A stretch of 37,315 bases of DNA from Candidatus Bathyarchaeia archaeon (GCA_050012255.1 JBEKHN010000019.1:1-37315); one strand, 5' to 3'. Numbered from the stretch's first letter, positions 3,665 to 31,079 are shown. Notes: generated by a model not told the origin, from the letters alone. Translations and numbers: made by a program.

Positions 3665-3694
3665 TCTCGAAAAGCTTGATTGAGGAGTTCTAGA

Positions 3695-15410: not shown

Positions 15411-15739
15411 GGTCTTCTCAAGAATATTCTGTTCACAGATCTCGAATCTCTACAGAGGCTATTGATTCAAAAGAATGAATCGAGCTTCTATCAGTGCCAT
15501 TTTGCGTTATTTCGTCTAGGGCGCTAGCGTGTTCCCAAATTCCCTTTATGGTGTCGTAGAGTGCGGTTTTGCGATCCACATGATTCTGCCACCGTCATAG
15601 GTCACGTTATCGCCCATAAACCAGGATATGCCAGAAGCAAAAGCGCGCGCCGCCCAATGCAGTGAGTATCACATTTTGGAAGATAGAATCTCATGATTTA
15701 GATGGCCCTTAGGGGCGCAAACATTAATACTTCTTTCCT

Positions 15740-16132: not shown

Positions 16133-16556
16133 CCAGTCTAGGTATTATTCACTTCCAATGCAATTTTGGCTTTTTCGTGCGCTTAACCTTTTAAAAATGA
16201 GTGACGTCAGCAACGTTATGTAGAAAGCTATTCACGCGTAAGCTTGGTTCTAAATTCGTTCGCGACTGTTTTCGTCATAGGTTTGCTTGGTTCTTGGATG
16301 ACTGTGTGACTATTGATGCGAGAAGTATTGTTTGTAGGACATGAACCAGCTCGTCACGCCTGAAAAGGGGATTTCAGGAAGACGCTGAGCGCGCTAGTCG
16401 CAACAACGTGCAGGTCAAAGGGTCAATGTCAGTTTCATCTTTTGATCATGACGTGAAGTCTTCGACCATCTTCACTGCTATAGCTGAGAAAACCTGCGAA
16501 AAAGTTAATGGGAGACTTATTAGGAGGTTAAAATGTCTATCTGAGTGGCCCGGAGA

Positions 16557-16656
16557 AGCCCGGTGGAGGGAAGAACACCTTTCCGCCGATTGTAGTGGAC
16601 AAGCATAGCGGGCTTTGGACCCGCCGACGAGAGTTCGAATCTCTCCCGGGCTACCA
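16557..16656 (+). tRNA. tRNA-Gln(UUG) with 24-nt intron at position 10/11 (16567-16590), CCA encoded
   Basis: Acceptor AGCCCGG/CCGGGCT, D stem G|TGT/GCAT, anticodon stem GCGGG/CCCGC with TTG at 16615-16617, T arm GAGAG-TTCGAAT-CTCTC; BHB-like motif at the intron ends. Confidence 0.92.
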
Positions 16657-16846
16657 CTACATGTGTAAGAGAATACTCCCCAATTTTTTCACTCTTCTAA
16701 TAGTTGAGCTGACAATGACTTTGCGTAATGATTGACCGTGAACGCGTGATTTCGTAAAGGTCTAGCGCGCGCTTTCCGTAACATTTTCTGATTGCTGAGT
16801 ATCTCTTACCAGTGAGAGAGATCTCGGAAGCGTTCCGTCCGTTGTA

Positions 16847-17272
16847 TTAAGCAGACTTTTTCGTCCCTTTTCTCCAAGGGGCCTGTTCAATAATTTCTAA
16901 AAGGCGTATGAACTGGCTTATGGGAGTAGCCTCCTTGGGAGAAATAGGGTTAAGCACGACTTGCGGTTCAGGTTCAGCGGTGGCCTGTGCAGCATCTTCA
17001 GGCGTCTCCTCTTCCTCCACAGTTCTAGGGATCTCCTCTCCCCTCAACCACTTCAGCCTTCTCAACCCCTTCTCTGTTATCTCGTGTATCCTAGTTCCCC
17101 AAGAGTCGGTGCTGCGCCTAGAGAGGAGACCTTGACGACTGTACTTTTTCAAGAGGGTTCTGGCGTTGTGGATCTCCAGGTCCAAGGCAGAGGCCAAGTC
17201 CGAGGACGTTGTCGTCGGGTGCTGCCTCACGTACTCCAAGACCTGAAGTTTTCTCTCGTTGTATCTGGCCAT
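16847..17272 (-). CDS. Winged helix-turn-helix DNA-binding protein
   Basis: LQVLEYVRQHPTTTSSDLASALDLEIHNARTLLKKYSRQGLL...EITEKG, acidic tail. Confidence 0.8.
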   Translation of the reverse strand: MARYNERKLQVLEYVRQHPTTTSSDLASALDLEIHNARTLLKKYSRQGLLSRRSTDSWGTRIHEITEKGLRRLKWLRGEEIPRTVEEEETPEDAAQATAEPEPQVVLNPISPKEATPISQFIRLLEIIEQAPWRKGTKKSA

Positions 17273-17301
17273 CCTGTCTCCGTCCAAGATTTCTTCCGTT
17301 A

Positions 17302-17576
17302 GTCCGTCTGTCCTCTGTCCGTTTTCCGCTGTTTATCCGCCAACCCACGCTTATTAAGCGTTTGCTGCTAGTGTTTACCCTCCCCTCCTCCGCCTAGTGG
17401 ACCCGATAGCTCCTATCGGGAGCAGAAGGAACTGAGCACTGTGTCGGAGCGGACGGAGCCAGAGACGGACGGACAACACTGAAAAATCCGCGAAGGCAGC
17501 CACGGACGGGAGCGGACAGGGACGGACAAATAGCGCGCGTGATGATGCGGCGGATAAGGGATAAATGGTGCGGACA
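17302..17576. repeat. Divergent CGGA(C/T)A short-repeat array around two inverted repeats
   Basis: Reverse copies at 17302, 17316, 17334; forward copies at 17450, 17466, 17470, 17503, 17513, 17523, 17551, 17571; hairpin CCCGATAG-CTC-CTATCGGG at 17402-17420. Confidence 0.7.
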
Positions 17577-17603
17577 ACCCATCTTTTGTTGGAGAGGATT
17601 GGA

Positions 17604-18896
17604 ATGTCCGTTAAGGGTCGGGTCAAGGAAGACCTTCACGCAGGAAAACCCTGGGATGTGATATACAAGAGGTATCGTTCCAAGAGCCAGATCTACGAGG
17701 GCTTAACCGAGTGGTTCGAGGAAGTGAAGGGTGAAATCACGGCCAAGCAGGACGAGGCTGCAGGCTTAGACGCCAAAGTAGAGGACTTAACCTCCAGGGT
17801 AAAGGGAGCCTCAACCGAGCATGCGGGTCTCCTTGAGAAGAGTGAGGACTTGAAGGAGAAATGTGAGCAGCTTAGCGAAAGCGTATCGAGCCTCGAACAG
17901 AGGAAAGCGACACTGGATACCCACCTGAACAACCTCACCTCAAAAATTGATGATTTAGCATCCAGAGGCGTCACGCTGGAGGTTGTTGAGAGAATCCACA
18001 CCGCCCAGTTTGAGTCAGGTGAAGACCTTCTAGGCCGGGTGCAGACAGCGCAAGCCCATGTGAGGCTGCGGGAGGATGAGGAAAAGCTTCGCATCAGCAA
18101 GGAAAAGCTTGAGGGCACGGTCAACAGCCTCGAAGGGACGGTGAAGGGCTTACAAGAGAAGGTCACAAGCGCGGAGAACAAGCTTGACACCGTTAGAGAC
18201 GAGACAGCCATTTACGGGACAGCCGTGGACGCCGTGAAACAGCTCTTCAGGGCAGGATACAAGGTAGAGGATATCAGCGCCTTGAGGGAAGGCTTGAAGG
18301 TCATGGAGATAAAGGGGGATCCTGAGATGTCTTTGAAGCGTTTTGTTGATGGCCTTCAAAGAGTGAAGTCGCTGGAGACTCTGAGGAAACAAAACGAGGA
18401 GGAAAAGACTAAGCTCGAAGCGATAAGGCGAGACCGCCGCGCTGTAGAAGCAGAGTTAACCTCCATGAAGGACACGACCGTGAAGGCTCTAAATGAAGCC
18501 AGAGAAGCGGCCGTAACTGAGGTTGAAAAGGTTGAACAGGAAGCCACAGCCGAAATTAGAGGTGTCCTGACGAACTTTAAGGAGGATTTGAAAGAGTGGG
18601 GCGAAATAAAGGCCGAGGCCGGGAAGTTGGGAGACCTGATCGATTTGGCTTACCGCTTAATGGGGATCAAAACGGTTTCCCCGGAGATACTCGGGAAGGT
18701 CTCCACCTCAGAGATAGCAAGCCTTATGGAGAGAATCTGGGTCTGGACGACTGTCAGGCTTCCAAACGAGTATGGCACTCTTAAGTATAACGAGTATGTA
18801 ACTCTTAAGTATAATCGTTTAAATATTCCTGTTGTAGCCGAGTTTCTGACGGAGGAGTTGAAGAAGAGAGCATTGGAGGAGGCGAAAAAAGCGTGA
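17604..18896 (+). CDS. Long coiled-coil protein, unknown function
   Basis: E/K/L heptad pattern over most of the length; no Walker motifs, so not SMC; start 17565 or 17604. Confidence 0.75.
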   Translation: MSVKGRVKEDLHAGKPWDVIYKRYRSKSQIYEGLTEWFEEVKGEITAKQDEAAGLDAKVEDLTSRVKGASTEHAGLLEKSEDLKEKCEQLSESVSSLEQRKATLDTHLNNLTSKIDDLASRGVTLEVVERIHTAQFESGEDLLGRVQTAQAHVRLREDEEKLRISKEKLEGTVNSLEGTVKGLQEKVTSAENKLDTVRDETAIYGTAVDAVKQLFRAGYKVEDISALREGLKVMEIKGDPEMSLKRFVDGLQRVKSLETLRKQNEEEKTKLEAIRRDRRAVEAELTSMKDTTVKALNEAREAAVTEVEKVEQEATAEIRGVLTNFKEDLKEWGEIKAEAGKLGDLIDLAYRLMGIKTVSPEILGKVSTSEIASLMERIWVWTTVRLPNEYGTLKYNEYVTLKYNRLNIPVVAEFLTEELKKRALEEAKKA

Positions 18897-19492
18897 GTTT
18901 CAACGAGATTAAACAAACCCTAAAAAGGGTTGATTTGCTCACGGAAACCCAAAGGGAAAACGAGGAGCTGAAGAAGGAACTTGCGAAGAGCCGTAGAGCG
19001 ATGGAGGAGTTAAGAGAAGACTTCAACAAGAGCTGTATGGCTGACATGGAGAAGTGGAAAGGTGAGGTGGTGGCGGCTAAAGAAGGTGAGGAAGAAGCCC
19101 TCACCAGGCTGGGGCTATTCAGGATTAGATGCGCGGCGGGCTTAGAACCCTATGACCTCTCCTTCAACGATGTCGAACCAGACCTCTTGACGAAGATTGT
19201 TTCTCTGAACCAAGAACTGCTGAACAGCGGAACCCTTCAGAATCCCGTCGGACGGGAAATCCAGTTGGCCTTAAACTACCTAAAGAAGAAGCTCCCCCCA
19301 GCGGATTGGAATCTGACCGCCCTCAAGGTGGGCAGCCACGTCCTGGAAAAGTTTGCGTGCCTTGCGGCGGATAAGTGTCTGACGTGTGGAGGGATCGGCT
19401 CGATAGCAACGGTATCCAAGGTACAGTGTCCACGATGCGGGGGGTCTGGAAGGCGAGAAATCGGAATGGGAAGGAAGGTTGATGAGGCATAA
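18893..19492 (+). CDS. Hypothetical protein with C-terminal DnaJ-type Zn-finger motifs
   Basis: CLTCGGIG...CPRCGGSG; GTGA overlap with the upstream gene. Confidence 0.7.
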   Translation: MSFNEIKQTLKRVDLLTETQRENEELKKELAKSRRAMEELREDFNKSCMADMEKWKGEVVAAKEGEEEALTRLGLFRIRCAAGLEPYDLSFNDVEPDLLTKIVSLNQELLNSGTLQNPVGREIQLALNYLKKKLPPADWNLTALKVGSHVLEKFACLAADKCLTCGGIGSIATVSKVQCPRCGGSGRREIGMGRKVDEA

Positions 19493-19962
19493 TAAGAGCA
19501 AGCCTCATCACAGAAAAATCCACAAAACAAAATAGCAAAAGAAGCGAGAGAGAGCGCGCACTTGATTCCAATGCATAACTCGTTCAAAGCTGAGACATAG
19601 GTAAGAACCCTAAACTTTTTGCGGCTAGATTTTTATGCTCTTTCTGACTACATCGAGCCTGGCATTTTCAGCGGGATGTCAGCACCTCAACTAGCGTTAA
19701 AACGTGAAAACTCAGCAACGGTAAAAACGCTAAAACCAGGTCAATGCTGTCACCAAACATAATCACTGCGCGTGCTGAATAGTCACGGTTGCCACATGCC
19801 ATATGACAAGCTCGAACTGCTGCTTCAACCCCCTTCTTTCTATTTGGCATGAGGCGTCATCGTGGTTACCCTCACTATGCTGCCTCACCCATGTTCTTAG
19901 CGCATGATTTCACAGTCCCCTTAGAGCCCCTGTTTTGCAACAGAGCTTTCAAGAGACTCAGG

Positions 19963-20722
19963 CTAACCGTGAAACTTCGCAAATTCCTTGGACTTCTCTA
20001 AAATCTCTGGAATGGTTAGCCTCGCCAAGTCTTCAGTATCGCCTATGAAACTGCATACTAGGCCGGTTCTAGCGTTAAGCGTGTTTGGAACAGTAACCAG
20101 CCTCATGGGATCGACTGAAACTGTGAAGTGGACTCTGTCAAAAACGTGAGTCTGCTTCTGCAACAGCTTAGTCAGTTTGAACCGGCTGGCATGGTGACAC
20201 CAAATCGGATCTCGCTCCCTATACCTAACCCAGTCTCTATAGTCAAAGTCCAAAACGTGAACGTGAAAGCCCATTCTTCCGCTAAAAACGACAGCGAGCC
20301 GCGAGTAATACTTCCTTATGATTTCGCATAGCTGCAAAGTCAACGTTTTAGCCATGCCCAAACATTCAACGCAGACACTCCATTCTGGATCAAGCTGGTG
20401 TTCATGCTTCCACAGCATCATGTAGCTATCAACGTCGACGACATAGCGCCGTTTAGAGGAACGCAGTACCTAGCCTTGTACTTCTTTCCAACACGTTCAG
20501 GGAAGAGCCAGTTTAAAACGCTGAAGTAGACGTGTTGAGGCTTGAGTTTCTAGCAGTAGAAGCGAGGTCCTTCTCGCTTAGCCTGTTCTCGAATTTGTTG
20601 AGCTTGACGAATCTGCCTTCGCATAGCTTAACCCTGAAATGCTTTCTGCTCAGGTTCCAAAGACTAGGCACTCGGAGGGGAACGTCTAGGTAGAACCTTT
20701 CGATCTGCCCCTGTGAAAGCAA
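19963..20722 (-). pseudogene. Archaeo-eukaryotic primase (PriS-like), frameshifted
   Basis: Reconstructed motifs YVVDVD, VFSGRMGFHVH, VDPMRLVTVPNTLNARTGL; frameshifts near 20565 and 20448 and in-frame TAG at 20550-20552, judged against the second copy and motif continuity. Confidence 0.8.
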
Positions 20723-20845
20723 GTTTCGTCAAGCCCAACCCATCGCTTGCGTCCGGGCAAATAAAAGGCAAGTGCTGAAACGATTGGCTTGGGAGCTGGA
20801 GAGACTCAAGTTAAAGTGAGCACGCATCTAATTGTTCTTCGAAGT

Positions 20846-20863
20846 TAGGACATTTTTGTCCTA
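20846..20863. promoter_or_regulatory. Perfect inverted repeat, possible operator
   Basis: TAGGACA-TTTT-TGTCCTA upstream of the primase remnant. Confidence 0.35.
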
Positions 20864-21181
20864 GGGTAACTCGAATCCGAGCAAATGGAGATTTCTCTCA
20901 CAAATCCCCTTTTTTCTCTTTACCACACTCGCTTGCTACCTATTTTTCCGCAAAATTCTACGTCACACTCTAATTTGGTAACACTGATTTAAAATTGCGA
21001 ATTTTCCCTAGCGCGCAAAGGCAGCGCGCGCTTGTCAGGGCGACGTTCAAACTCTCGACAATGAGAGAACGAATTGTCTTAGTCGGTAGAGGAAAAGGTC
21101 AAGAGGTCACTTCGAGGATGACTTCGTCGTAGCCTAGCCTTGCTGAAACTCGGAAAGGCCTTAAAAGAAGAGTTAGACGCG

Positions 21182-21292
21182 CGCGAATATTTGATTCCGA
21201 TGTTAGAGAAGATGGACATTAAGTGCGAAATTCCTTTGAAGAATCTCGGCATTGGCAGGCAACTAGCTTGGTACAAAAAGCATTATTGCTGA
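21182..21292 (+). pseudogene. C-terminal gene fragment, DUF6884-like
   Basis: REYLIPMLEKMDIKCEIPLKNLGIGRQLAWYKKHYC*; family recognised from memory of the PLxxLGIGxQLAWY ending. Confidence 0.5.
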
Positions 21293-21390
21293 GCGCGTGC
21301 GCGTGTTTAGCCTAATCTTAGGGCTCCTGCAGCTCCTTCCCCGTAAAACATATCTTTTGGTTAAACCATACATGACGTGAAGAAATAGTA

Positions 21391-23073
21391 TTGTTAAAGA
21401 GAGCAGTTTCTGGAATAATTCTGACATTGCTGTTAACGGGCATGTTAACGTTGGCATTTAACATTCAACCAGTTAAAGCAAGTGGAACGATTTACATTAG
21501 GGCTGACGGCTCAGTGGACCCGCCAGACGCACCAATCACAACCTTAGACAACGTGACATACACGCTAACAGAAAATATTAATATTACAAGTTCTGACGAT
21601 GGAATTATTCTAGAAAGAGACAACATAATAATTGATGGAAATGGATACACAGTTCAAGGGTCAGTAACATTTTTTTCCAGAGGAATAATCCTGACGGGAA
21701 GAAGCAACGTAACAATCAAGAACACGAGAATTACGACATTCCATTATGGCATTACGACATTAGGTTATGAGCCCGAGATCGATTCGTGTTCTTATGGCAA
21801 CATTAGCGGAAACAACGTAGCAAACAACGTGGACGGCATCTATCTCAGTAGTTCTTCTGGCTACAGCATTAGCGGAAACAACATAACAGCAAACAACATG
21901 TGGGGCATCAGGCTCGCTTTTTCTTCTGGCAACAGTATCAGCGGAAACAACATGACAGCAAACGGCTGGGCTGGCATCTATCTCGAGTCTTGTTCTGGCA
22001 ACAGCATTAGCGGAAACAACATAGCAAACAACGGGCATGGCGTCCAGTTATACGGGTCTTCAAGCAATACTATGGCTGGAAATAACATAACAAACAACGG
22101 GTATGGCATCATGCTCGATTGGGCTTCTCCTGGCAACAAGCTTTATCATAACAACTTCAACAACACTAACCAAGTCTGTTCTTCAGACTCAATGAATGTT
22201 TGGGATGACGACTATCCAAGCGGTGGTAACTACTGGAGCGACTACGTTGGCGTTGACCTTTATCATGGACTCTATCAGAATGAGACCGGTAGCGATGGTA
22301 TAGGAGATATTCCCTGCATTATTGATGAAAATAATCAGGACAACTATCCTTTGATGGAGCCTTGGAGTCCTGTTGAAGTTGTTAACGCTACTATCGATAT
22401 TGACCCTGGTACTCTGAACTTGAGGAGCAGGGGTAAGTGGATTACTTGCTACGTTGAGCTTCCTAAGGGCTACAACGTAAGTGATATTAACGTTACCTCG
22501 GTTATGCTGAATGACACGGTTCCTGTCTATCCCAAGGCGCACGCTATAGGAGACTATGATGAAGACGGCATCCCAGACTTGATGGTTAAATTTGACAGAG
22601 CTGAAGTCATAGACTACATAATGGCTAATGTTAACATGACTGAACTGTTTGAAGAAAAGCTCATGACAGTTACATTAACCATAACTGGTAAACTCAATGA
22701 TGGAACACCACTCCAAGGGAATACAAAAATCAGAATAATAGCGCGCGCGGGGCTTCCAAGAATCAATAGCAAGATATCTTTTAACCTATCGCCAAACCCC
22801 GCATTAACCGGGCAAACAATCACTTTAACCGGCAATCTCAAGAACCAGCTTGGCAATGCGATAGGCAATGCTCCCATTGAAGTGTATTACAGCATAGACA
22901 ACGGTCTCAATTGGATATACGCAGGAGCAATACGAACGAACTCTACTGGCTGGTTCAGTGCCAAAGGAAAGCTCACAATCGTTGGCATCTTTCCAATCGC
23001 AGTTGTCTACCGAGGCAACTTCAGATACAGCCAAAGCTACCAAATAGAGAAGCTAACGGTCAAATTGCCGTAG
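21391..23073 (+). CDS. Secreted parallel beta-helix (NosD/CASH-like) protein with appended Ig-like domain
   Basis: Signal peptide, GTIYIRADGSVDP, repeated SGNSISGNNITAN units, GGNYWSDY...DGIGD...DNYPL, PDLMVKFDR. Confidence 0.85.
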   Translation: MLKRAVSGIILTLLLTGMLTLAFNIQPVKASGTIYIRADGSVDPPDAPITTLDNVTYTLTENINITSSDDGIILERDNIIIDGNGYTVQGSVTFFSRGIILTGRSNVTIKNTRITTFHYGITTLGYEPEIDSCSYGNISGNNVANNVDGIYLSSSSGYSISGNNITANNMWGIRLAFSSGNSISGNNMTANGWAGIYLESCSGNSISGNNIANNGHGVQLYGSSSNTMAGNNITNNGYGIMLDWASPGNKLYHNNFNNTNQVCSSDSMNVWDDDYPSGGNYWSDYVGVDLYHGLYQNETGSDGIGDIPCIIDENNQDNYPLMEPWSPVEVVNATIDIDPGTLNLRSRGKWITCYVELPKGYNVSDINVTSVMLNDTVPVYPKAHAIGDYDEDGIPDLMVKFDRAEVIDYIMANVNMTELFEEKLMTVTLTITGKLNDGTPLQGNTKIRIIARAGLPRINSKISFNLSPNPALTGQTITLTGNLKNQLGNAIGNAPIEVYYSIDNGLNWIYAGAIRTNSTGWFSAKGKLTIVGIFPIAVVYRGNFRYSQSYQIEKLTVKLP

Positions 23074-23317
23074 CATGCACTAAGAAATCAGTCTATCTTT
23101 CTGGTTCGCTTTGCCGACGAGCCAGTTTAGTCCGATAACTGACGCGATAGAAAGGAGACCCACAAGCGCGCGCATTCTACTCCCTCGAATCAAACGCAAA
23201 ATGTGCAAACAACATAACACAGCGCGCGCGCTTAGGACGCACGTCGATTAAATAGTCAAATGCAACACGTTTGACGGTAGTTAGCGAAACGCCGTGATGA
23301 ATGTAAGGGGCGTTCAT

Positions 23318-23779
23318 ATGAAAGTTAAGTGGAAGATACGGCGTCATATTAAGCCAGGGGATATAGGGTATCTCACTTATCTTCATGGAATCTTGTATGC
23401 AAAAGAATATGGCTACGACCAAACATTCGAAGCGTATGTTGCAGGTGGGCTTGCAGAATTTGTTCAATCGTTCAGACCCGCCAAAGATCAAATTTGGCTG
23501 GCAGAGACAAACGGTCGAATTATTGGTTCCATCGTCATTGTCGGGCACTCAAAAGTAGATGCTCAACTTCGCTGGTTCCTCGTTCATCCTGACTATCGAG
23601 GGCTTGGTATTGGCAAAGAGCTCCTGAAGGACGCGCTTCAGTTCTGTAAGGAGTGCAAGTACAAAACCATATTCCTCTGGACAACAAACGAACTAATAGA
23701 GGCTGGTCATCTCTACACATGCTTCGGCTTCAGTAAAACCGAGAGGAAAACGCACAAAATTAGCGCGCGCGCTACATAG
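23318..23779 (+). CDS. GNAT family N-acetyltransferase, C-terminus apparently truncated
   Basis: AQLRWFLVHPDYRGLGIGKELL, FLWT, AGHLY..FGF; ends abruptly ...THKISARAT in a (GC)5 tract. Confidence 0.85.
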   Translation: MKVKWKIRRHIKPGDIGYLTYLHGILYAKEYGYDQTFEAYVAGGLAEFVQSFRPAKDQIWLAETNGRIIGSIVIVGHSKVDAQLRWFLVHPDYRGLGIGKELLKDALQFCKECKYKTIFLWTTNELIEAGHLYTCFGFSKTERKTHKISARAT

Positions 23780-23803
23780 ACAACAATTTGAGGAAGACGG
23801 AGT

Positions 23804-24163
23804 TTGACGAAGAAAAAAAGCAAGACCCGTCGATGGATGGAAAAAAACAGCGTGGGCCTTCTGGAGGTAGTTGTTACAATTATCATCGGATTGCTGACAA
23901 TCAATTATTCAAGAACAGTTGTAATAATAAACCAGACATACGTGCCACCTGCCGCGCAGGCTAGCTGGCATACGGTGGAAAGTTGGCAATTGGGAGCCTC
24001 AGCAACGGCAACCACACAAACACTTACATTTGATTGGGCGGGATTCTTGGGAGACGTTTCTTGGTGTGTTACATTAGGTGTTGCAGGTCTAATCGGGCTA
24101 TACCGCTGGAAAAACTATCATTGGAAGACGGTAAATTGGCGCGCGCTAATGAATGCTCACTAA
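23804..24163 (+). CDS. Small membrane protein, possibly chimeric or truncated
   Basis: Two hydrophobic segments; the 3' end runs through the (GC)4 tract at 24139. Confidence 0.5.
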   Translation: MTKKKSKTRRWMEKNSVGLLEVVVTIIIGLLTINYSRTVVIINQTYVPPAAQASWHTVESWQLGASATATTQTLTFDWAGFLGDVSWCVTLGVAGLIGLYRWKNYHWKTVNWRALMNAH

Positions 24164-24660
24164 TGTTTTCTTCGGAGCCAGAATATCCATTGAGCCAATA
24201 TGAACCCGAATGTTGCGATTGTCGAAAAGATAATGACCAAGCCTGTGAAGGGATTTATGTATGCTTCGAATTCGACAGTAGGACCAACTAACCTACCCCC
24301 GATCAAGACATTGATTATCACAAGTAAGAATATGCTCAAGTACAAACCAACAGCCAAAAATGTTCTTGCACCCAACAAGATCGCTTCTCTTTTCGATTTT
24401 AGAAACCAAAAATAGCAAAGAATTGCACCTAGTAACGAGAATGAAGAATATATGCCAAACTCTGAGATAATGTAGCCATAACTAAGAAACGGAATCCCGA
24501 AGAAGTTCGTCATGCCCGCATGGTTAACTATTGTCAATACATCGTTTGGCATAGTTAGAACAATAGAATACATGACAAATACAAAACCGAGAATGACAAC
24601 AGCGATCTCGATTTCAACTCTATAGGATTCGCTTATGGTGGTTTCTTTCTTTGTTGGCAT
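24160..24660 (-). CDS. Hypothetical 4-TM membrane protein
   Basis: Four hydrophobic segments; GAGGA before ATG; AT-rich. Confidence 0.7.
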   Translation of the reverse strand: MPTKKETTISESYRVEIEIAVVILGFVFVMYSIVLTMPNDVLTIVNHAGMTNFFGIPFLSYGYIISEFGIYSSFSLLGAILCYFWFLKSKREAILLGARTFLAVGLYLSIFLLVIINVLIGGRLVGPTVEFEAYINPFTGLVIIFSTIATFGFILAQWIFWLRRKH

Positions 24661-24862
24661 AAATCCTCATAGAAGATAAATCTTGAAACCAACTATTAAC
24701 ACATTTTCTTTTCGCCACATAGCGTGCTTTGAAAACTTTAAGAAAAAAGAGTTTATGGCAAGGCGTACAGCTTCTTCGGTCTGCCTTCTTTCGGCTCGAG
24801 GCTTTTTCCCCTGTCATCCCCGATCTTCCGAACGGTTCCCCATGCCACTCCATATACTCACT

Positions 24863-24994
24863 CACACACTGTGCGAGTGTGTGGTCACTATGTATAGGTA
24901 GGTAGGTAGGGTGTGTGAGAGATTGTGTGCGTAGTAGAGAGTAGTAGAGAGCGAGTGTGTGTGCTTAGGGGTAAAGTTTTACCCAACCAACCAA
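24863..24994. repeat. Low-complexity microrepeat block
   Basis: CACACACT/AGTGTGTG hairpin, (TAGG)4, (GTAGTAGAGA)2, GGGTAAA-GT-TTTACCC, (CCAA)3. Confidence 0.7.
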
Positions 24995-25037
24995 CACATG
25001 ACAAAACTTTTTCCAAGAGGCAAACCAAAAGTAATCA

Positions 25038-25277
25038 GCACCTCGCTGATCGCGAGGTGCCTGCAAAGCAAGAGGCAGGGTGCCACCCTTCGTCACCTAC
25101 GCCCCTATAACGAAGCAGGTCACCTAATACGGGGCTTTGGTGACTACGGGTGGCTGGTAAGAGGCTACGTGAACGTGCTGTGAGAAAAGAGGCTACCTAT
25201 TACGCACGTTCGCTCTCACAAAGAAAGAAAGCAATTCAAGACGCTATATTCCAAGAGGCTACTCTTGACGCTATATT
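25038..25277. ncRNA. Candidate structured non-coding RNA or ssDNA element
   Basis: 9-bp hairpin, three-way junction with complementary loops, 10-bp stem, three AAGAGGCTAC copies; strand not determined. Confidence 0.5.
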
Positions 25278-25384
25278 ATAGTGCTAAAGAAAGAAAGTAG
25301 ACAGCAGGGCAAAAGAGGGGTAGAAAAGCGTAAAACGGGAAAAACTGTTAGAAGTTAAATCTATAAGACAAAACAACAACATGT

Positions 25385-26080
25385 TTGAACATGAATCATC
25401 GCAAAGCTCTTTCACTCTCAATATCGGTAGTGCTTTTGGTAATCTTTATAGTGCTGGTCTATTTCTATCGGTCATCTTTTGAATTCCTTTCGATTTTTGT
25501 AAGAGATGCATTGTGGGCAAGCGTTCTTGTCACGGTTGTGCTGGTAATCATAAACACTTTCTATGCAATGCAAACAAGACAGACAATTAAAGAGATGGAA
25601 AAAGCAAGGAAAGCCGATTTCCTTCCACACGTCAGAGCCGAGTTGAGTTTTCTAGGTCCAGTTTTTTTGATTCTGAAGGCAACTAACTTCGGCAAAGGAC
25701 CAGCTACTGACATTAGAACCGAAATCACTTTTCTACCTTCAAATGAAAAAAGGGTCTGGCAACAGGCAATTATGTCACCTAATGAATTCATTCGCATTCT
25801 ACTGCCAGATGGAAATCTGGCAAAGGTATTGGAGAGGTCTGCGGAAATCACTGCGAAGGGAGAATACAAGGATGTTTTCGGTCAAACCTTCAAAATAGAT
25901 GAAAGAATGGACGTAAAGGCATTCATTGATGAAGCTACACAACTTCGACCCATTCTAGAGAGGGACCTTGCCAGACTTGTTGAAGATATAAAAGACAAGT
26001 TAGACGGTATAGAGCGAGAATTACATGATATACGGTTACAATTGGAAACCAGAAGAATAGCAGAAACGGAAGAGCTGTGA
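25385..26080 (+). CDS. Hypothetical protein with two N-terminal TM helices and C-terminal coiled coil
   Basis: 231-aa ORF; TM-TM-YAMQTRQT..EM...NFGKGPA pattern. Confidence 0.75.
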   Translation: MNMNHRKALSLSISVVLLVIFIVLVYFYRSSFEFLSIFVRDALWASVLVTVVLVIINTFYAMQTRQTIKEMEKARKADFLPHVRAELSFLGPVFLILKATNFGKGPATDIRTEITFLPSNEKRVWQQAIMSPNEFIRILLPDGNLAKVLERSAEITAKGEYKDVFGQTFKIDERMDVKAFIDEATQLRPILERDLARLVEDIKDKLDGIERELHDIRLQLETRRIAETEEL

Positions 26081-26086
26081 CACCGA

Positions 26087-26333
26087 ATGGACAAAGAGGA
26101 TAGAGAGTTTCAGCTCGAACTAACAAGACTTCAATTAATATTTGAATGGTTTTTTGCGGTACTTGTTGGTATGTTCAATCTTTTATGGGCTACTGTCTTT
26201 CTACCGAGATAACCCTGCTATGTTCTTGGGTACAAACGCGATGATAGTTCTGATTATGGCTCTTCTTGTCGTGACTTATAGATTAATGGACTATAAATTC
26301 AAACAAATAAGAAAGAGCTACATCGAGAGCTAG
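26087..26333 (+). pseudogene. Small membrane protein gene, probably frameshifted
   Basis: MDKEDREFQLELTRLQLIFEWFFAVLVGMF in one frame continues as SIFYGLL...KFKQIRKSYIES* in another; shift near 26175. Confidence 0.45.
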
Positions 26334-26393
26334 CATTTTCCGTTTCTAGCGCGTGCGCTAAGTGTTTTAAGAACGGAAAGTCTATTCTAACAC

Positions 26394-26843
26394 ATGAAAA
26401 AAGAATTTGAATGGACAAATCACGAAGCTGTCAAGAATGCAGTTAAAGAGTGGTTGAAAAACCGAAGATATTTTGAAATCCTTCCTGCAAAAACATGGCT
26501 CAATCCTTTGAACATTGATGTCCTCACAAGAAAGACTTGTCCAGAAGAACTGTACCTCTTTGAATTATATGAAATAAAGGTGAAAAGAGATAACCTTCAG
26601 GTAGCACCTTATCAACTAGAAACCTGTAGAATACGACTTGAAGACCAAGGTGCTACTAGATGCTATGTTGTTGTGCCACACTGGCTTTTAGACCAACTAG
26701 ACAATTGCGGTGAATATCCTTTTTTCATTGCAGCAATGAAACGATTTGGATATGGCATAATAACCGTTAGTCCTGCGCTTATTCCGACCGAATTTGTGAA
26801 ACCTCTTACTTTCAAGAGAGTCAAAGAAGCTACATGGAAATAG
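26394..26843 (+). CDS. PD-(D/E)XK nuclease-like protein
   Basis: HEAVK..VKEWL...IDVL...YEIK...YQL pattern, followed by YVVVP and GIITV strands. Confidence 0.6.
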   Translation: MKKEFEWTNHEAVKNAVKEWLKNRRYFEILPAKTWLNPLNIDVLTRKTCPEELYLFELYEIKVKRDNLQVAPYQLETCRIRLEDQGATRCYVVVPHWLLDQLDNCGEYPFFIAAMKRFGYGIITVSPALIPTEFVKPLTFKRVKEATWK

Positions 26844-27008
26844 TCTAAACCATTTCTTGAGATTCTTTTCCTCTTCTATTCAGAATTCAGAAAGGGAGCC
26901 TTTCTAAGGCACGGAATAACGTTTAATAGCCTATTAGCCTTTATCCTTCTAGGAGAAGGAGAGAATGAAGACTAAAACGGTAAAGGTGGCTCTAGATAGC
27001 GCGCGCGC

Positions 27009-27281
27009 ATTTAGGGGGACACAATACCGAGCCTTATACTTCTTGCCGACCCTTTCTGGAAAGAGCCAGTTTAGAACAGAGAAGTAAACGTGACGAGGCC
27101 TGAGTTTCCGACAGTAAAACTTCAAGTCCCTGGCTGATAGGCGATTTTTGAACCTGTTTAGTTTGACGAATCGGCCTTCGCCAAGCGAAACCCGGAAATG
27201 CTTCCGGCTTAGGTTCCAGAGGCTGGGCACTTGGAGGGGATAGTCTACATAGAACCTTTGGATTTCGCTAGGTGAGAGCAA
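27009..27281 (-). pseudogene. N-terminal fragment of a second PriS-like primase copy
   Basis: MLSPSEIQRFY...YCVPLN closely matches 20722-20452; similarity stops at the (GC)5 tract 26999-27008, before the catalytic DxD. Confidence 0.85.
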
Positions 27282-27321
27282 GGTTCGTCATCCAAATAGA
27301 AGACCGCGCGCGCTTTCGATT

Positions 27322-27333
27322 CTCACCGGTGAG
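27322..27333. repeat. 12-bp palindrome CTCACCGGTGAG (also 31189-31200; 10/12 variant 16805-16816)
   Basis: Direct sequence match; each copy lies near a (GC)4 tract. Confidence 0.75.
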
Positions 27334-27818
27334 TAAAAGTGATTTTGGAGTTTTGTATGGTAAGGTTCAAAGGTTAGCAAGCGCGCATGCGTGTTCCTAA
27401 AATGGTCAAAAATGGTTTTAATTCGGTTTTGCCCGTTTCTCCTGTGTTCGAGGAAGACAAAATCCCCAAAGAAATCAAGAACAGACACGAAGCCCAAAGC
27501 CGTCCCCAGATGATGAAGTGCGAAGGCGCGCGCGCCATAGATTATTGAAGTTATCTTTTCAATATGTTTTTCCAGATGTTTCAAGCAGTTTTACCATTGA
27601 CAGGAATTCTGATGCTTCAATTGGAACAATTTTATAACCTTTGTTTATGGCTTGAGTAATGAGATTAGTAGCGCGAGCTATGTTCCACAAATCTTAAATA
27701 AAGTTCTCGCACAAAGAGACACTTATCCTATGTTTTGGAATGTCGTTTAGCGAAAAATGAACTTCTTCTCGAACATAGGAGAAAAATGAATAGCGTAGAG
27801 AAGGGAGAAAAAGGAAAA

Positions 27819-29990
27819 ATGAGAGAAAGCTCAAAACTGGGAATTCTGCTTTTAGCTTTGCTGGTGATGAGCCTTTTTGCAGGCGCCTATTTTGTTTCAG
27901 GTACATCCGATTCTTCAATGATAGCCGATAAAGCGAGGTCAAATCATCCTTCGCCGAATGAACAAGTGACAGTCTCAGACCCAACAGCCGAAAAGCCCCT
28001 GACGAATATTATTGTCGATTCCGATGCACCGCAATTTGCCTCAGACAATGACGTTGCGGGCTCATCGGGTTCTGGCTGGAAACCCGACGTAAACATAGTG
28101 CCTGGAAGCATCTACACGGCGAGAGATGAGGTTAATCCCTCAATTGCCACGTACATTGATTCGTCAACAGGAGCGGTTACTCTGTGGGCTGCGATGCAGA
28201 GTTGGGATTCATACTATTCCCACTGGTTCCTATGGGTCTTTGCTTCTAACGATAGAGGAGCCACGTGGTGGCAACGTGGCGCAGCCGCTTGGGTTTCGAA
28301 CCGAAGCATCATCAACCCTTCAATAGCAGTCAGTCCTTACAACGGAACAGTCTTCGTCGCCGTTCAAAACACCGCGTTCGGAGGATCTACAAACGACATA
28401 CAAATCCATGTTATCTCTCCAGTAGCTCTTGGCCCATGGGCATCGTATAATATTGACGCTGATGCTGACGATGACCTCTCTCCGCAACTGGTTTCGGAAT
28501 ACGGCTGGGGAACTGGCAACTGGTTGCACGTTTCTTATGAGAGGTACGTGACTTATGACGACCGCGACCTATGCTATGGAAACTCGGGAGACTGGGGCAA
28601 AACATGGTCAACGAAAGTGTTACAAGGTGCGGTAGGCACCCCTGGAGCAGCCGATGTATTCACTCAAAGTGACATCGCATTTGTGCAAGACAACGTATAC
28701 GTGGCCTACAGGCACTCAATCGACTACAATACACAAGGAATCATAGAAGTTATGTACTCCACTAATTTTGGCGGCACATTTAAAATACCCGTTAAAGTCA
28801 GTCCCACAAAAAACACTAATGCTCGGTGGCCAACCGTAATAGGCTCTCACAAAGGACCTTGGAACGAGCCAACCACAATGTGGATTGCTTATCAAAATGC
28901 CAGTGGCAGCCCCACCTACGGCGACGTTTTTGCTTGTTGGAGTAAGGACTTCGGTGATACATGGTCGTCTCCAGTAACAATAGCTGGCACTTCTTATGAT
29001 GAAGGGAAACCTCAGCTGAGCGTGGACGGAATGGGCACAGAAAACGGCAACGTACCTGGGTACATTCATCTTGTGTACTGGACAAGCGAAAACACCGCCT
29101 CCAGAACTAACGGTGTATACTACACGCAAATCGCTTACTTCGAGCCGACCTACGCTCCTGCCCCGCAGGTTTATCTCTTCGAAGAAGGCTGGTCAACCCC
29201 GAAAGGACAAATCATTGACAACAACGGGTACGCGAGTGCCACTTACAACACTCCGACAATCACCACTTTCACACGTACAGTTGCAGGAGAAACCCTTTGG
29301 GTGCCAGGCGTCGCATGGACAGACTTACGAAACCCCAACTACGATGTATACTTCACCACACTCGACACGATGTTCCGCGTTACCGTCTATCCTAGCACTC
29401 AGACTGTGGTCGCAGGCGGGTCACTATCGTACTACATCACGGTCACGCTAAACTCAGGCGCAACGGCAACAGCCACGCTGGACATCGTTGGACCAAACAC
29501 GTACCACCTGAGCAGCGCAAACGTGTGGGGCCACACCTTCAATCCGCCAACAGTCACACCAACTGCCACATCGCTCCTAACCTTCAATACCGCCAACTTC
29601 CTAGGTCCAGGAAGCTATTCCATCCGTGCATCCGCGGTCATAGGAGGCTACCGCCGCACCGCCGCTGTAACCTTTGTGGTGACGGCATCCCCGACCCTTA
29701 CACTGAACATCAATCCGTCCACGGTCGCAAGAGGCTCGCCACTAGCCATAAACGGGCAACTCACTCCTGGCATGGCCACGACAGTATACCTTTACTACAG
29801 ATATCCCCACGCAACTGGTTCATGGGCACTAGCCACTACCATACCAACCAACGCGGCTGGAGCCTACAGCGTAACCGCAACGGTTCCAATGAGCCTAACG
29901 CCCGGAATCTATGACCTAGTAGCGGTCTGGTTCAACCCAGCCAACGGCGCCTACACAGCTAGTCCCATAAGAGTACTAACAATAACATAG
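27819..29990 (+). CDS. Secreted BNR/Asp-box (sialidase-like propeller) protein with C-terminal Ig-like domains
   Basis: Signal peptide; SNDRGATW, SGDWGKTW, STNFGGTF, SKDFGDTW; T/V-rich beta-sandwich tail. Confidence 0.8.
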   Translation: MRESSKLGILLLALLVMSLFAGAYFVSGTSDSSMIADKARSNHPSPNEQVTVSDPTAEKPLTNIIVDSDAPQFASDNDVAGSSGSGWKPDVNIVPGSIYTARDEVNPSIATYIDSSTGAVTLWAAMQSWDSYYSHWFLWVFASNDRGATWWQRGAAAWVSNRSIINPSIAVSPYNGTVFVAVQNTAFGGSTNDIQIHVISPVALGPWASYNIDADADDDLSPQLVSEYGWGTGNWLHVSYERYVTYDDRDLCYGNSGDWGKTWSTKVLQGAVGTPGAADVFTQSDIAFVQDNVYVAYRHSIDYNTQGIIEVMYSTNFGGTFKIPVKVSPTKNTNARWPTVIGSHKGPWNEPTTMWIAYQNASGSPTYGDVFACWSKDFGDTWSSPVTIAGTSYDEGKPQLSVDGMGTENGNVPGYIHLVYWTSENTASRTNGVYYTQIAYFEPTYAPAPQVYLFEEGWSTPKGQIIDNNGYASATYNTPTITTFTRTVAGETLWVPGVAWTDLRNPNYDVYFTTLDTMFRVTVYPSTQTVVAGGSLSYYITVTLNSGATATATLDIVGPNTYHLSSANVWGHTFNPPTVTPTATSLLTFNTANFLGPGSYSIRASAVIGGYRRTAAVTFVVTASPTLTLNINPSTVARGSPLAINGQLTPGMATTVYLYYRYPHATGSWALATTIPTNAAGAYSVTATVPMSLTPGIYDLVAVWFNPANGAYTASPIRVLTIT

Positions 29991-30185
29991 CAAAAAGGTG
30001 CGCAACCCTAAGCCATCCCCCCATTTTTTCTCTGTATTGCCTAGAAAAGACCACTTCTCACTCGCAAACGTTGTACGTCGTCGTATGCCAGCTAAACTTT
30101 AACGAATTGGGGTTTTGGGTTTGGGGGTAAAGTTTTATTGCTGAAATGAGGTAGGGTAGACCACCTAGCAACGAGGTCATAGACA

Positions 30186-31079
30186 ATGGATTTGGAGAAG
30201 GGTTTCTTGGGCGGTTTCGCGCGCGCGCGCGCGAAGGAGAAGCTGAACTTCACACGCTTCTACAGGATTTTCCCCGGGGGCATACCGGAGGTGTGTAAAT
30301 TCGCAGAAGTTCCTGTTCCGATCGAGCGGATCAAAAGGATAGAGAAAGCGATGAAGGCCTCAAGGGATGAGGAGGTCAAGGGAGTTCTGACCAGGGCGTT
30401 TGGATGGGAGAAGAGACGTGACAAAGCTAAGGCGCTGCTTGATGCGGAGAAGAGGGAGAAGGAAGCCAAGTTAGAAGCGCTGAGGATGGAAGCTCAGCTG
30501 GATCCAAGGAAAATTCCTGCATACCTTGAAGAGAAGAGCTCGCCCTTGCTGAGCGATCTGCGTGAAGCGTGCGCCATTGAGAAGGACAGCCTCCAGGATG
30601 CATGCCTTGAAGCTGTCGAATATTGGGATTCGAATGCTCGCTCAGAAACCAAGACTTTTGAGGATTATATTGAGTACTGCTTATCAAATTGGGCATGGTG
30701 GGTGAGGCTATGTAATGCAACAAAAAAGTACAGTGGAACGACCTTCGGCTGCCGTTGTCCTGAATGTAACGGCAAATATGAATATGCTACGTATTATGAC
30801 TCCGGCGCTGAATTCTTCAAATGTCCCAACTGTGGAAAAACTGTATGCTATCCATGCCCAATCTGCATGGAAGCGTGGCGTTCCGAGAAGCGTTTAGAAT
30901 ATGATCCGAAGAGAAATACACTCCACTGTTCCTTGTGTGGATCTCACTTTGACGTGACCCCTCCAGCCCTGAATAGGCAGAGCACTGCTTACACAGAAAA
31001 AGTCAAGCAGCAGAGAAGAAATGCGGAAAAGCAAGACCAAGAGATGATGAAAAGGTTGTGGCGTAGCCTGATGCATTAA
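30186..31079 (+). CDS. Hypothetical protein with four CxxC motifs; N-terminus probably chimeric
   Basis: CPEC, CPNC, CPIC, CSLC; (CG)8 tract encodes ARARA near the start. Confidence 0.7.
   Translation: MDLEKGFLGGFARARAKEKLNFTRFYRIFPGGIPEVCKFAEVPVPIERIKRIEKAMKASRDEEVKGVLTRAFGWEKRRDKAKALLDAEKREKEAKLEALRMEAQLDPRKIPAYLEEKSSPLLSDLREACAIEKDSLQDACLEAVEYWDSNARSETKTFEDYIEYCLSNWAWWVRLCNATKKYSGTTFGCRCPECNGKYEYATYYDSGAEFFKCPNCGKTVCYPCPICMEAWRSEKRLEYDPKRNTLHCSLCGSHFDVTPPALNRQSTAYTEKVKQQRRNAEKQDQEMMKRLWRSLMH
30216..30235. repeat. Perfect 20-bp palindrome TT(CG)8AA, longest member of the (GC)n family
   Basis: Direct reading; other tracts of at least 8 nt at 283, 488, 15643, 16765, 21024, 21178, 22741, 23166, 23222, 23763, 24139, 26999, 27306, 27526, 31206, 31312, 31449. 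Confidence 0.95.

Follow-up and report, generated by a model that had tools for sequence, protein, structure and literature searches.

Decaying PriS-like primase cassettes and fixed-size alternating GC tracts at gene truncation points in Bathyarchaeia

Why should two copies of a PriS-like primase gene, carried on one stretch of archaeal DNA, both be damaged just ahead of the first catalytic motif, one of them at an alternating GC tract? The stretch analyzed here (37,315 nt, referred to as the window) belongs to the chromosome of a Bathyarchaeia archaeon; it encodes TFIIB, pyruvate:ferredoxin oxidoreductase, and HMG-CoA synthase/thiolase, and 10 of 13 related loci (L001 to L009 and L011) come from Bathyarchaeota or Bathyarchaeia MAGs. 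The relative in L011, which shares a MAG with L008, is distant (27% identical). An earlier note had proposed that both copies are broken at the same codon, that a short GCGC seed sits there, and that the primase itself might write the tracts. We consider it probable, on the whole, that the primase genes are decaying cassettes, that the tracts are scars of DNA breakage and rejoining, and that the shared site is mostly a matter of chance.

Two decaying copies of a compact PriS-like cassette

Both primase sequences represent a single-gene cassette that occurs in multiple copies, and both are in decay. The cassette is made up of a promoter-like block, the gene for a compact PriS-like archaeo-eukaryotic primase (AEP; about 270 to 280 codons), and a conserved 3′ stem-loop. 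The features of the two copies are as follows.

19847..20722, minus strand: copy 1, a full-length pseudogene of the compact PriS-like AEP (three-frame translation; DNA alignment to five related loci)
19849..19888, minus strand: conserved stem-loop at the 3′ end of the cassette, overlapping the stop codon and retained even in gutted remnants
about 19926-19931, minus strand: +1 shift in copy 1 (three-frame translation, DNA alignment)
19963-19965, minus strand: in-frame TAG replacing Tyr in copy 1 (same methods)
20446..20450, minus strand: the copy 1 site in question, GGCGC versus GGN GAR (Gly92-Glu93) in relatives, before the YVVDVD motif I
20550-20552, minus strand: in-frame TAG replacing Trp in copy 1 (same methods)
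20564/20565, minus strand: frameshift in copy 1, CT-CGC versus CTGCG in relatives
26999..27008, no strand: (GC)5 tract, the 3′ breakpoint of copy 2
27009..27304, minus strand: copy 2, a 296-nt 5′ fragment of a second PriS-like cassette, from a leader of about 23 nt to codon 91
27305..27313, no strand: 9-nt alternating-GC tract severing the upstream region of copy 2

Over its catalytic part, copy 1 shares 95% identity with P0001, an intact protein. It carries three frameshifts and two in-frame TAG codons in total, with at least four lesions besides the GGCGC site; the catalytic motifs are legible, but the N-terminus lies in another frame. Point lesions would be its route of decay. Copy 2, about 77 to 78% identical to copy 1, would instead be a twice-cut cassette, the 296-nt survivor between two (GC)4-5 tracts. 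In agreement with the earlier note, it reads CCC CTA AAT before the tract, GCGCGCGCGC (26999-27008), which is followed by TAT CTA GAG. In BLASTN comparisons with intact relatives, its 3′ homology ends at 27008 in L001, L002, and L008, at 27010 in L004, and at 27015-27022 in the remaining four of the eight matching loci. The tract is a true breakpoint: homology to related loci ends either there or no more than about 14 nt away. The paralogue, together with the intact relatives, does serve as the internal control that had been suggested. Upstream, homology reaches its limit at 27301, and the GC tract noted there proved to be 9 nt long (27305-27313), lying 23 nt before the TTG start; the promoter-like block of other copies is missing beyond it. 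Across the 26999-27008 tract lies an unrelated ORF on the plus strand, represented there by its first 11 codons (26965-26997). This ORF, also reported earlier (MKTKTVKVALD, from 26965), has 40 codons and a GGAG-rich stretch upstream; it runs into the tract after those 11 codons and is antisense to copy 2 thereafter. Both flanks of the tract are 3′-truncated convergent genes.

The family itself resembles archaeal PriS in several respects. D97, D99, S148, H154, H156, D205, C118, and C121 are invariant in 77 proteins (for G149 and G152, conservation is 90% or higher); motifs I (DxD), II (SGxGxH), and III (hD) are present and align with DID, SGR-GYH, and VTVD of Pyrococcus abyssi PriS, and a Cys/His zinc knuckle lies between motifs I and II. 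An AlphaFold model of a family protein (pLDDT 83.7) gave archaeal PriS as its top seven Foldseek matches (E 3.7e-12 to 5.4e-11, TM about 0.55 to 0.56), so the predicted fold is that of PriS, with the best matches to the Pyrococcus and Saccharolobus proteins. Curated PriS cut-offs were missed for TIGR00335 (44 to 51 bits versus 143.5) and, in three of four proteins, for PF01896 (13.8 to 21.2 bits versus 26.8); P0076 reached 30.2 bits with the latter. Unlike archaeal PriS, the family has only about 270 to 280 residues and lacks the helical domain between motifs II and III, and its gene is multi-copy, often broken, without conserved neighbours, and followed by its own conserved stem-loop. No PriL gene was adjacent in the window or in five annotated loci. 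A LigD polymerase domain was considered and rejected: PolDom structures ranked 42 and below (E about 1e-5), and there was no Pfam PolDom hit. The window does encode a stand-alone LigD phosphoesterase-domain gene, at 3680-4135.

The 3′ stem-loop comprises 14 pairs, with 95.5% of cells paired versus 28 to 60% in slid controls; double-change cells number 12 versus 3.7 in shuffles, a count reached in none of 500. This hairpin is limited to the PriS cassette and is not common to other cassettes. The conserved ends of the cassette survive deletion of its middle. Taken alone, neither primase copy is out of the ordinary; each is a pseudogene in decay from a multi-copy cassette. This is a narrower claim of lesser import.

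The shared damage site

The copy 1 sequence CCT CTA AAC GGCGC TAT GTC GTC GAC, with a change of frame, is indeed found at plus-strand positions 20446-20450. That the two copies are damaged at the same codon is only approximately right: copy 2 is broken after the first base of codon 92, and the copy 1 lesion is in codon 93 (GAR to GC, a net loss of 1 nt), 4 to 6 nt away. The probability that any of five lesions falls within 3, 6, or 9 nt of the copy 2 break is 0.04, 0.074, or 0.107, respectively. The proposed GCGC seed was absent from all eight homologous DNA copies (GGN GAR in seven, CGT TAA in one), and among the 77 proteins conservation of G92 and E93 is 90% or higher. Judged from these sequences, the GCGC of copy 1 is derived, made by its own lesion, and not ancestral.

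That leaves the question of a hotspot. One could propose that a GCGC seed at the Gly-Glu site nucleates tracts and that the AEP writes them by untemplated addition, and terminal transferase activity is known for some AEPs. Breaks do fall within positions 91 to 96 in copy 2, P0288 (VPMG/ARA), P0279/P0281 (YVV/ARA), and P0044 (SAR/VIDVD), the slash marking the junction, and other lesions occur there in copy 1 (frameshift), L007 (stop codon), P0259, and P0258 (p about 0.04 to 0.08). Of 19 AR-type junction events used for comparison, copy 2 set aside, 3 are no more than 5 codons from the site (p about 0.04), and 2 are no more than 3 codons from it (p about 0.08). The cluster at 91 to 96 is suggestive, although protein searches favor fragments retaining the conserved block 60-100 just upstream and so bias it. 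P0259 stops at PLNGE and P0258 begins at GEFVVDVD; these ends and the cluster imply that the shared site is perhaps not pure chance. Still, the other 15 of the 19 events are scattered over positions 16 to 281, and close pairs among the first 14 positions number 4 versus 2.9 expected (P = 0.31). With none of the eight homologous copies carrying the seed, with unrelated genes also broken by tracts, and with a predicted fold of the replicative PriS type, not that of an end-joining polymerase, we find this proposal improbable. The role of tract writer gains no support, since the family is seen here only as a target broken by tracts, and L001 has an intact copy yet carries (GATC)n tracts. The proximity of the copy 1 frameshift to the copy 2 break is probably due to chance, which is the simplest account; a weak hotspot is the most that might be claimed.

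Alternating GC tracts and the genes they bound

Three further features of the window bear on the tracts.

300..486, minus strand: tract-bounded remnant, encoding ~62 C-terminal residues of a protein that is intact in L011 (456 residues)
15643..31458, no strand: tract-rich region; of the 18 alternating-GC tracts in the window that reach 8 nt or more, 16 lie here, and between about 19.5 and 31.6 kb short ORFs and gene fragments form a patchwork with tracts in between
22741..22752, plus strand: 12-nt in-frame insertion (9-nt tract plus GGG, encoding ARAG) in a NosD-like surface protein gene (21391-23073)

GCGCGC occurs 49 times versus 6.6 expected, a count reached in none of 100 shuffles. The tract census covered 195,331 nt of Bathyarchaeia DNA, sampled around one gene family and biased toward variable islands, whose genes include a methylase and a Hachiman defence system in L001, an integrase in L005, and IS110 transposases in L009. 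Tracts of 8, 9, and 10 nt numbered 25, 29, and 15, versus Markov expectations of 2.3, 0.5, and 0.1 (69 versus about 3 overall); none had 11 to 15 nt, and one had 16. A microsatellite origin was rejected, as there is no smooth length tail and other alternating dinucleotides lack the 8- to 10-nt mode. ORFs of at least 150 aa make up 70% of the DNA, and 64 of 70 tracts lie outside them; of the six in-ORF tracts, four lie no further than 4% of the ORF length from one of its ends. The first outward base was T in 72 of 140 flanks (27% background), and the information is confined to the tract and two flanking bases. Rather than a microsatellite, the tract is a self-complementary word of fixed size (8 to 10 nt) that recurs lineage-wide, A(GC)4-5T being its commonest form. 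L001 carries (GATC)2-3 instead of alternating GC.

In independent assemblies, tracts mark the limits of truncated gene fragments, which belong to at least three families. At the DNA level, PriS-like copies are cut at tracts in L005 (5′ truncation) and in L006 and L007 (3′ truncations), and L003 has a NosD-like gene truncated at a tract. The 300-486 remnant lies between tracts at 283-290, 3 nt past its stop, and at 487-495, its 5′ truncation. At the protein level, the point where homology stops coincides exactly with an Ala/Arg run in at least 10 of 120 family members; the same holds for 7 of 58 short fragments. At the NosD-like insertion site, P0122, P0124, and P0126 have ARAG, P0123 has AHAG, and P0125 has ARTG; P0127 (73% identical) reads IIL-PK without the insertion, so that the case depends on one diverged protein and may reflect a deletion in that lineage instead. 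No target-site duplication surrounds this insertion. The L001 remnant is an internally deleted PriS cassette whose joint carries a (GATC)3 tract plus 7 nt; in intact PriS copies the gene itself is free of tracts. The five joints inspected showed 0 to 2 nt of microhomology.

Could the tracts, or the copy 1 frameshifts, be assembly or consensus errors, for instance at methylated GCGC in long reads? The first copy 1 frameshift is at an inferred intact GCGC and the second in a GCGC-containing stretch, and several related MAGs have contig names of long-read style. Set against this, SPAdes and MEGAHIT contigs carry tracts too; L006 is of the former kind and L007 of the latter, and their junctions are therefore not a long-read artefact. 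Long ORFs of the window, 22.4 kb in all, contain 47 GCGC and 52 CGCG sites with no frame break at any of them, and copy 1 also has two nonsense substitutions. We regard such errors as very improbable.

Scars, motifs, or mobile elements

We favor the scar reading, in which breakage and rejoining of DNA would leave a tract, or have one written, at the joint, and the tract's self-complementarity would allow any two ends to pair. The outcome would sometimes be a bare tract insertion and sometimes include loss or exchange of flanking DNA; (GATC)2-3 would serve the same role in one related genome. We infer that tracts arise at the break and do not pre-exist there, from the L001 deletion joint, the NosD-like insertion, the doubly truncated flanks at 26999-27008, and the scant microhomology.

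Some features also fit a functional intergenic motif, with A(GC)4-5T selected between transcription units as a protein-binding, Z-DNA-prone, or RNA-hairpin element. Tracts would then be recombinogenic only secondarily, and deletions anchored at a pre-existing tract would truncate its neighbours. Consistent with this are the strong exclusion from ORFs, the defined length and symmetric flank consensus, and the intergenic position of all seven tracts at 1-19.6 kb, where the genes of the window are conserved. Internally decayed tracts in the window are few (about 3, versus 18 perfect), which could mean selection on a functional motif and not neutral scars. The A...T and AT-rich flank preference would be unexpected for filler between random ends and fits a sequence-specific site or target preference. 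However, such a motif leaves unexplained a tract in the internal deletion of a gene that is tract-free when intact, an in-frame insertion within a coding region, and a tract between two truncated genes, and the distance from PriS cassette end to tract varies (about 20 to 360 nt). We consider it rather unlikely.

Alternatively, the tracts might be footprints of a cut-and-paste element or site-specific cassette recombination sites, with (GC)n, or (GATC)n in L001, as ends or core. Fixed length, palindromy, a TA/AT-rich flank preference, a genome-specific tract word, accompanying deletions and fusions, and integrase and IS110 genes in related loci are all consistent with this. We nevertheless give it little credence: the window encodes no transposase or integrase, no element with matching termini was seen in the 17 kb of tract-rich DNA inspected, no terminal inverted repeats were found around tract pairs, and the NosD-like insertion lacks a target-site duplication. 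Integron gene cassettes were rejected, as the boundaries are 8- to 10-nt tracts, not attC hairpins of about 60 to 120 nt, and the window has no integrase. A restriction-linked origin is without support, since GCGC, CGCG, and GATC outside tracts are not avoided (observed/expected 0.53 to 1.17). No enzyme, element, or donor behind the tracts was identified.

Among known systems, the scars suggested here resemble in part those of nonhomologous end joining (NHEJ; the Ku/LigD pathway), which leaves filler DNA and overhang fill-in at junctions. Shared features are short insertions at rejoined breaks, microhomology of 0 to 2 nt, and flanking deletions; NHEJ filler is variable or templated by the flanks, whereas the tract is one self-complementary word of fixed length, genome-wide. 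The REP/BIME elements of bacteria are short GC-rich extragenic palindromes in many copies, often at gene ends and at sites of rearrangement (PMC2817692, PMC12306157); the available portion of PMC12306157 contains neither "Bathyarchae" nor "GCGC." The tracts are likewise extragenic, palindromic, and in high copy number, but they are 8 to 10 nt of pure alternating GC without the 20- to 40-nt imperfect stem-loop and conserved head, they sit exactly at gene truncation points, and the window has no REP-associated RAYT transposase. Thermophilic polymerases with restriction endonucleases are reported to make tandem palindromic repeats without template in vitro (Liang et al. 2004; Ogata 2007, as cited in PMC9097989). 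(GCGC)n and (GATC)n are such tandem short palindromes; that reaction is known in vitro, however, and here there is no evidence of a matching endonuclease. The IS-excision enhancer (IEE), compared by description only, is reported to be an AEP with microhomology-mediated end joining activity at mobile elements (PMC9943667). It ties an AEP-family enzyme to DNA breakage and rejoining; the family protein studied here is predicted to fold like PriS.

One can envision, tentatively, that some Bathyarchaeia join broken or captured ends via fixed-size self-complementary linkers, written at the ends for annealing. Most sampled genomes have (GC)4-5 and one has (GATC)2-3. The PriS-like cassette could be a mobile passenger of such a process or, less likely, a component.

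In predicted proteins of these organisms, Ala-Arg-Ala runs flag fusion or truncation points and may be of use in annotation. If the tracts are scars, each rearrangement, insertion, and truncation in such genomes is visibly marked, and the genome-shuffling history of a major uncultured archaeal lineage would be readable from sequence; they would also point to an undescribed end-joining or recombination chemistry. If the linker idea holds, it would amount to a natural adapter ligation that shuffles gene fragments and builds patchwork islands, scarring every joint.

The two broken primase copies and their shared site

The two PriS-like genes of the window are pseudogenes of the ordinary kind, derived from a small and unusual primase cassette. 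Species-representative genomes were scanned with an alignment of intact relatives, yielding 13 loci. Nine of these (L001-L009) are in Bathyarchaeota/Bathyarchaeia MAGs, at 43-81% identity; L011, a distant relative, shares its MAG with L008, and the remaining three are distant matches in Archaeoglobaceae, Acidobacteriota, and Clostridia MAGs. On the minus strand, copy 1 starts with a TTG at 20722, reaches the stop usual for the family at 19875-19877, and differs from its relatives by five lesions.

Lesions of primase copy 1
20564/20565, minus strand: loss of 1 nt
20550-20552, minus strand: conserved Trp changed to TAG
20446-20450, minus strand: the site under question
19963-19965, minus strand: Tyr changed to TAG
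~19926-19931, minus strand: +1 shift that throws the conserved C-terminal tail out of frame

Copy 2 has ~77-78% identity to copy 1. In BLASTN comparisons with eight related loci, its homology ends at 27008 in three, at 27010 in one, and at 27015-27022 in four, with an upstream limit at 27301; copy 2 is therefore a 296-nt piece exactly between two alternating-GC tracts, 26999-27008 and 27305-27313. The earlier note, whose quoted sequences for both copies are correct, had taken copy 2 to be bounded upstream by a GC tract and the tract to be a breakpoint, and both statements hold: the homology reaches 27301 beside the first of these boundaries and stops at 27008-27022 beside the other. Tract 26999-27008 has a truncated gene on either side, in convergent orientation.

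It had also been claimed that both copies were damaged at the same codon. Both are indeed broken there, but copy 2 keeps AAT and one G before its tract, and thus the lesions lie 4-6 nt apart rather than in one codon. The further proposal of a short GCGC seed at the equivalent site is refuted; GCGC is not ancestral there and is absent from all eight related DNA copies. These read AAY GGN GAR TAY, except for L007 (CGT TAA), and five of the eight have GGC GAR. Gly92 and Glu93 are at least 90% conserved among 77 full-length proteins, and Asp97 and Asp99 are invariant. The GGCGC of copy 1 derives from GGC GAR, with one base lost and another changed.

How unusual is it for both copies to be broken here? 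The chance that one of five lesions (over ~855 nt) falls within 3, 6, or 9 nt of a given point is 0.04, 0.074, or 0.107. For a wider census, we collected positions at which the homology of family members ends at an Ala/Arg run, which is what (GC)n encodes in whatever reading frame. There were at least 10 such ends among 120 proteins in the near-full-length range, and seven proteins representing five events among 58 shorter fragments; tract junctions were seen at the DNA level in L005, L006, and L007. Junction positions are spread across the gene from 16 to 281. With copy 2 excluded, 3 of 19 events (P0288, P0044, and P0279/P0281) lie within five codons of position 91 (p ~0.04) and two within three codons (p ~0.08); other lesions there are the stop in codon 93 of L007, the end of P0259 at PLNGE, and the start of P0258 at GEFVVDVD. 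Among 14 positions, there was no excess of close junction pairs (P = 0.31). The cluster around position 91 is suggestive and is confounded, since fragments were found via shared 5-residue words and the most conserved block is just upstream of the site, favoring N-terminal fragments that end soon after it. The shared site is unproven as a hotspot.

In pairs that might be halves of one insertion (copy 2/P0044, L006/P0070, and L007/P0107), one fragment ends almost exactly where the other starts, but their nearest relatives differ, which makes them independent events.

Size, placement, and junctions of the tracts

The window has 49 occurrences of GCGCGC where 6.6 are expected; its alternating-GC runs number 24 at a length of 6 nt or more and 18 at 8 nt or more. 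In the window pooled with ten Bathyarchaeia loci (195,331 nt), runs of 6, 7, 8, 9, and 10 nt number 37, 18, 25, 29, and 15, compared to first-order Markov expectations of 33.5, 7.1, 2.3, 0.5, and 0.1; none is 11-15 nt long, and one is 16 nt. No second length mode was found in other alternating dinucleotides of the same DNA. Ordinary slippage is ruled out by this size, fixed at 8-10 nt. Enrichment is seen across assembly types, including SPAdes (L003 and L006), MEGAHIT (L007), and long-read-style assemblies.

Simple random filler is an explanation with several points against it. One is a flank preference: reading outward, T stands next to the tract in 72 of 140 flanks, with A or T at the second position in 98 of 140, and A(GC)4T and A(GC)5T together occur 13 times. 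Another is the scarcity of decayed tracts, with only ~3 in the window carrying an internal substitution (21293-21302, 26349-26358, and 27381-27390); the single-change forms are GCGCGTGCGC, twice, and GCGCGCATGC, once, of the C-to-T type at CpG. Finally, no writer was identified.

In general, tracts avoid long genes: ORFs of at least 150 aa make up 70% of the DNA, yet 64 of 70 tracts of at least 8 nt fall outside them, and of the six inside, four are within 4% of the ORF length from either end. A fragile intergenic motif under selection is a serious rival to an origin at breaks. Two tracts meet ORFs of the window as follows.

Tracts within open reading frames
30218-30233: longest tract, 16 nt, at codons 11-16 of ORF 30186-31079
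23294-23779: complete GNAT acetyltransferase ORF, its last five codons running through the (GC)5 tract 23763-23772

ORF 30186-31079 encodes a 297-residue protein with weak zinc-ribbon matches, and its true start may lie downstream of the tract. The ORF following the GNAT gene, 23804-24163, likewise ends shortly past a tract.

Junctions are not limited to the primase family. The NosD-like gene of L003 has 63% identity to the NosD-like protein of the window over ~125 residues, then enters a 9-nt tract and ends; the window protein continues for a further ~435 residues. Window positions 300-486 (minus strand) code only for the C-terminal ~62 residues of a protein whose intact form, in L011, has 456 residues; the 5′ side of this remnant ends at tract 487-495, and its stop is 3 nt from tract 283-290. 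Within the NosD-like gene of the window, tract 22741-22749 plus GGG encodes ARAG, common to its relatives P0122, P0124, and P0126, with AHAG in P0123 and ARTG in P0125; these AHA and ART variants of ARA are also of the C-to-T type at CpG. The four residues are missing from P0127 (73% identical), and unfused relatives have the same IILP motif at their end. On this comparison, ARAG looks like a bare 12-nt in-frame insertion.

L001 has a second word, (GATC)n. Two palindromic octamers are overrepresented there, TCGATCGA and GATCGATC, each found 8 times with 0.3 expected, and all but one of its eight (GATC)n tracts are outside long ORFs. An internal deletion of a PriS cassette in L001 has a (GATC)3 tract plus 7 nt at the joint, and the truncated copy of L008 breaks at ATCGATCG. 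Each word repeats a 4-nt palindrome in tandem and is fully self-complementary.

At L002 7684-7706, a (GATC)n tract stands beside a (GC)n tract with TAT alone between them. The 12-nt palindrome CTCACCGGTGAG occurs twice in the window (27322-27333 and 31189-31200; 17 of 19 nt shared including flanks), each copy 1-8 nt from a (GC)4 tract and the latter also 3 nt from the (GATC) tract 31175-31184.

The PriS-like cassette and its setting

In a profile search, archaeal PriS is the match among solved structures (E 7e-8); the aligned parts include the DxD, zinc knuckle, SGR-GxH, and motif III aspartate, and ~80 residues that PriS has between motifs II and III are skipped. The best matches of the predicted fold (AlphaFold model from 77 sequences; pLDDT 83.7) are Pyrococcus and Saccharolobus PriS (E 3.7e-12 to 5.4e-11), followed by eukaryotic Pri1 and then LigD PolDom only at E ~1e-5. 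With curated PriS models, the protein scores far under the cut-offs. A phage, plasmid, or defense origin of the protein was rejected, as tblastn gave no match in phage or plasmid collections and the protein belongs to no PHROG or PADLOC family.

The unit conserved between loci is a promoter-like block, the gene, and a 3′ stem-loop; neighborhoods of intact copies are unrelated (methylase and Hachiman genes in L001, metabolic genes in L002 and L004). The block, TTCACTTTAAC...CTCTCTCC, is ~120 nt upstream of the PriS-like start (region 20830-20870 in the window), aligns in L001-L004, L006, and L008, and probably acts as the promoter; three loci have a tract 10-19 nt further upstream.

3′ stem-loop of the cassette
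Window 19849-19888, minus strand: stem-loop overlapping the stop codon
L001 10787-10877 and 19899-19989; L002-L005; L008 11364-11454: stem-loop in relatives

An invariant AGGGTAAC loop is found in the stem-loop at the 3′ end of every PriS-like cassette. Pairing holds in 95.5% of alignment cells (28-60% in slid controls), and there are 12 double-change cells, against 3.7 in shuffles, a number reached by 0 of 500 shuffles; the predicted structure is supported by these compensatory changes. L001 carries an intact copy and a gutted remnant, and both cassette ends are kept in remnants without the middle (L001 19762-19990 and L008), the pattern of a multicopy cassette whose ends matter. A covariance model recovered only its own eight input sequences and no orphan stem-loops.

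Directly upstream of the intact gene in L001, the genome with (GATC)n tracts, are a 633-residue N6/N4 DNA methylase and a Hachiman-type pair, HamA plus helicase (899-8920).

The window itself is gene dense and normal from 1 to ~19.5 kb and a patchwork of short ORFs and fragments from ~19.5 to 31.6 kb. TFIIB, 2-oxoacid:ferredoxin oxidoreductase subunits, an HMG-CoA synthase/thiolase pair, and an OB-fold single-strand-binding protein make up an archaeal housekeeping set; large secreted proteins with NosD/beta-helix, CARDB, dockerin, and subtilase domains are also encoded.

Other features of the window
3680-4135: stand-alone LigD 3′-phosphoesterase domain protein (Pfam E 2e-40), adjoining the oxidoreductase genes
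16589-16645: partial tRNA-like match (Rfam 32.2 bits, model positions 9-63)
24840-25330: low-complexity noncoding stretch, GT/GA rich, with CCAA and AAAGAAAG repeats

The tRNA-like match, which may be left over from an integration site, has a tract on either side and is close to the border of the tract-rich region. It is the only match to known RNA families in the window; ARAGORN calls no tRNA, and the low-complexity stretch has no Rfam match.

Origin and meaning of the tracts

The best fit to the data is that tracts would appear at the moment of break-and-rejoin, because an internal deletion has a tract at its joint in a gene that is tract free when intact, because the NosD-like gene has a bare in-frame insertion, and because a tract can be flanked on both sides by truncated genes. 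One can envision that self-complementarity would let any two word-bearing ends anneal. Microhomology with the gene side was 0-2 nt at five joints inspected, similar to end joining. The LigD-type phosphoesterase gene shows that end-joining parts are present in the organism and nothing beyond that.

A restriction-site origin was rejected: outside tracts, GCGC, CGCG, and GATC show no avoidance (observed/expected 0.53-1.17), and primase-gene breakpoints fall elsewhere than at native GCGC or GATC sites. A transposon ending in tracts was also set aside, with no inverted repeats beyond the tracts in 15000-32000 of the window.

We found no description of such tracts in mainly open-access literature, including term look-ups in PMC11697101 and PMC12306157. 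Thermophilic polymerases reportedly synthesize tandem palindromic repeats in vitro, which is a suggestive parallel.

The earlier note had also put forward, as speculation, the primase as a candidate writer of the tracts. Here the family is seen only as a target broken by them. Tract density does not track local copy state in 20-kb samples, which are far too few for a proper test: L002, with an intact copy, has 5.8 tracts per 10 kb, L009, with a broken copy, 6.3, and L001, with an intact copy, 1.4 plus (GATC)n tracts. The observation in the earlier note is real, and its lasting value is that the primase paralogues expose a lineage-wide palindromic junction word of fixed size.
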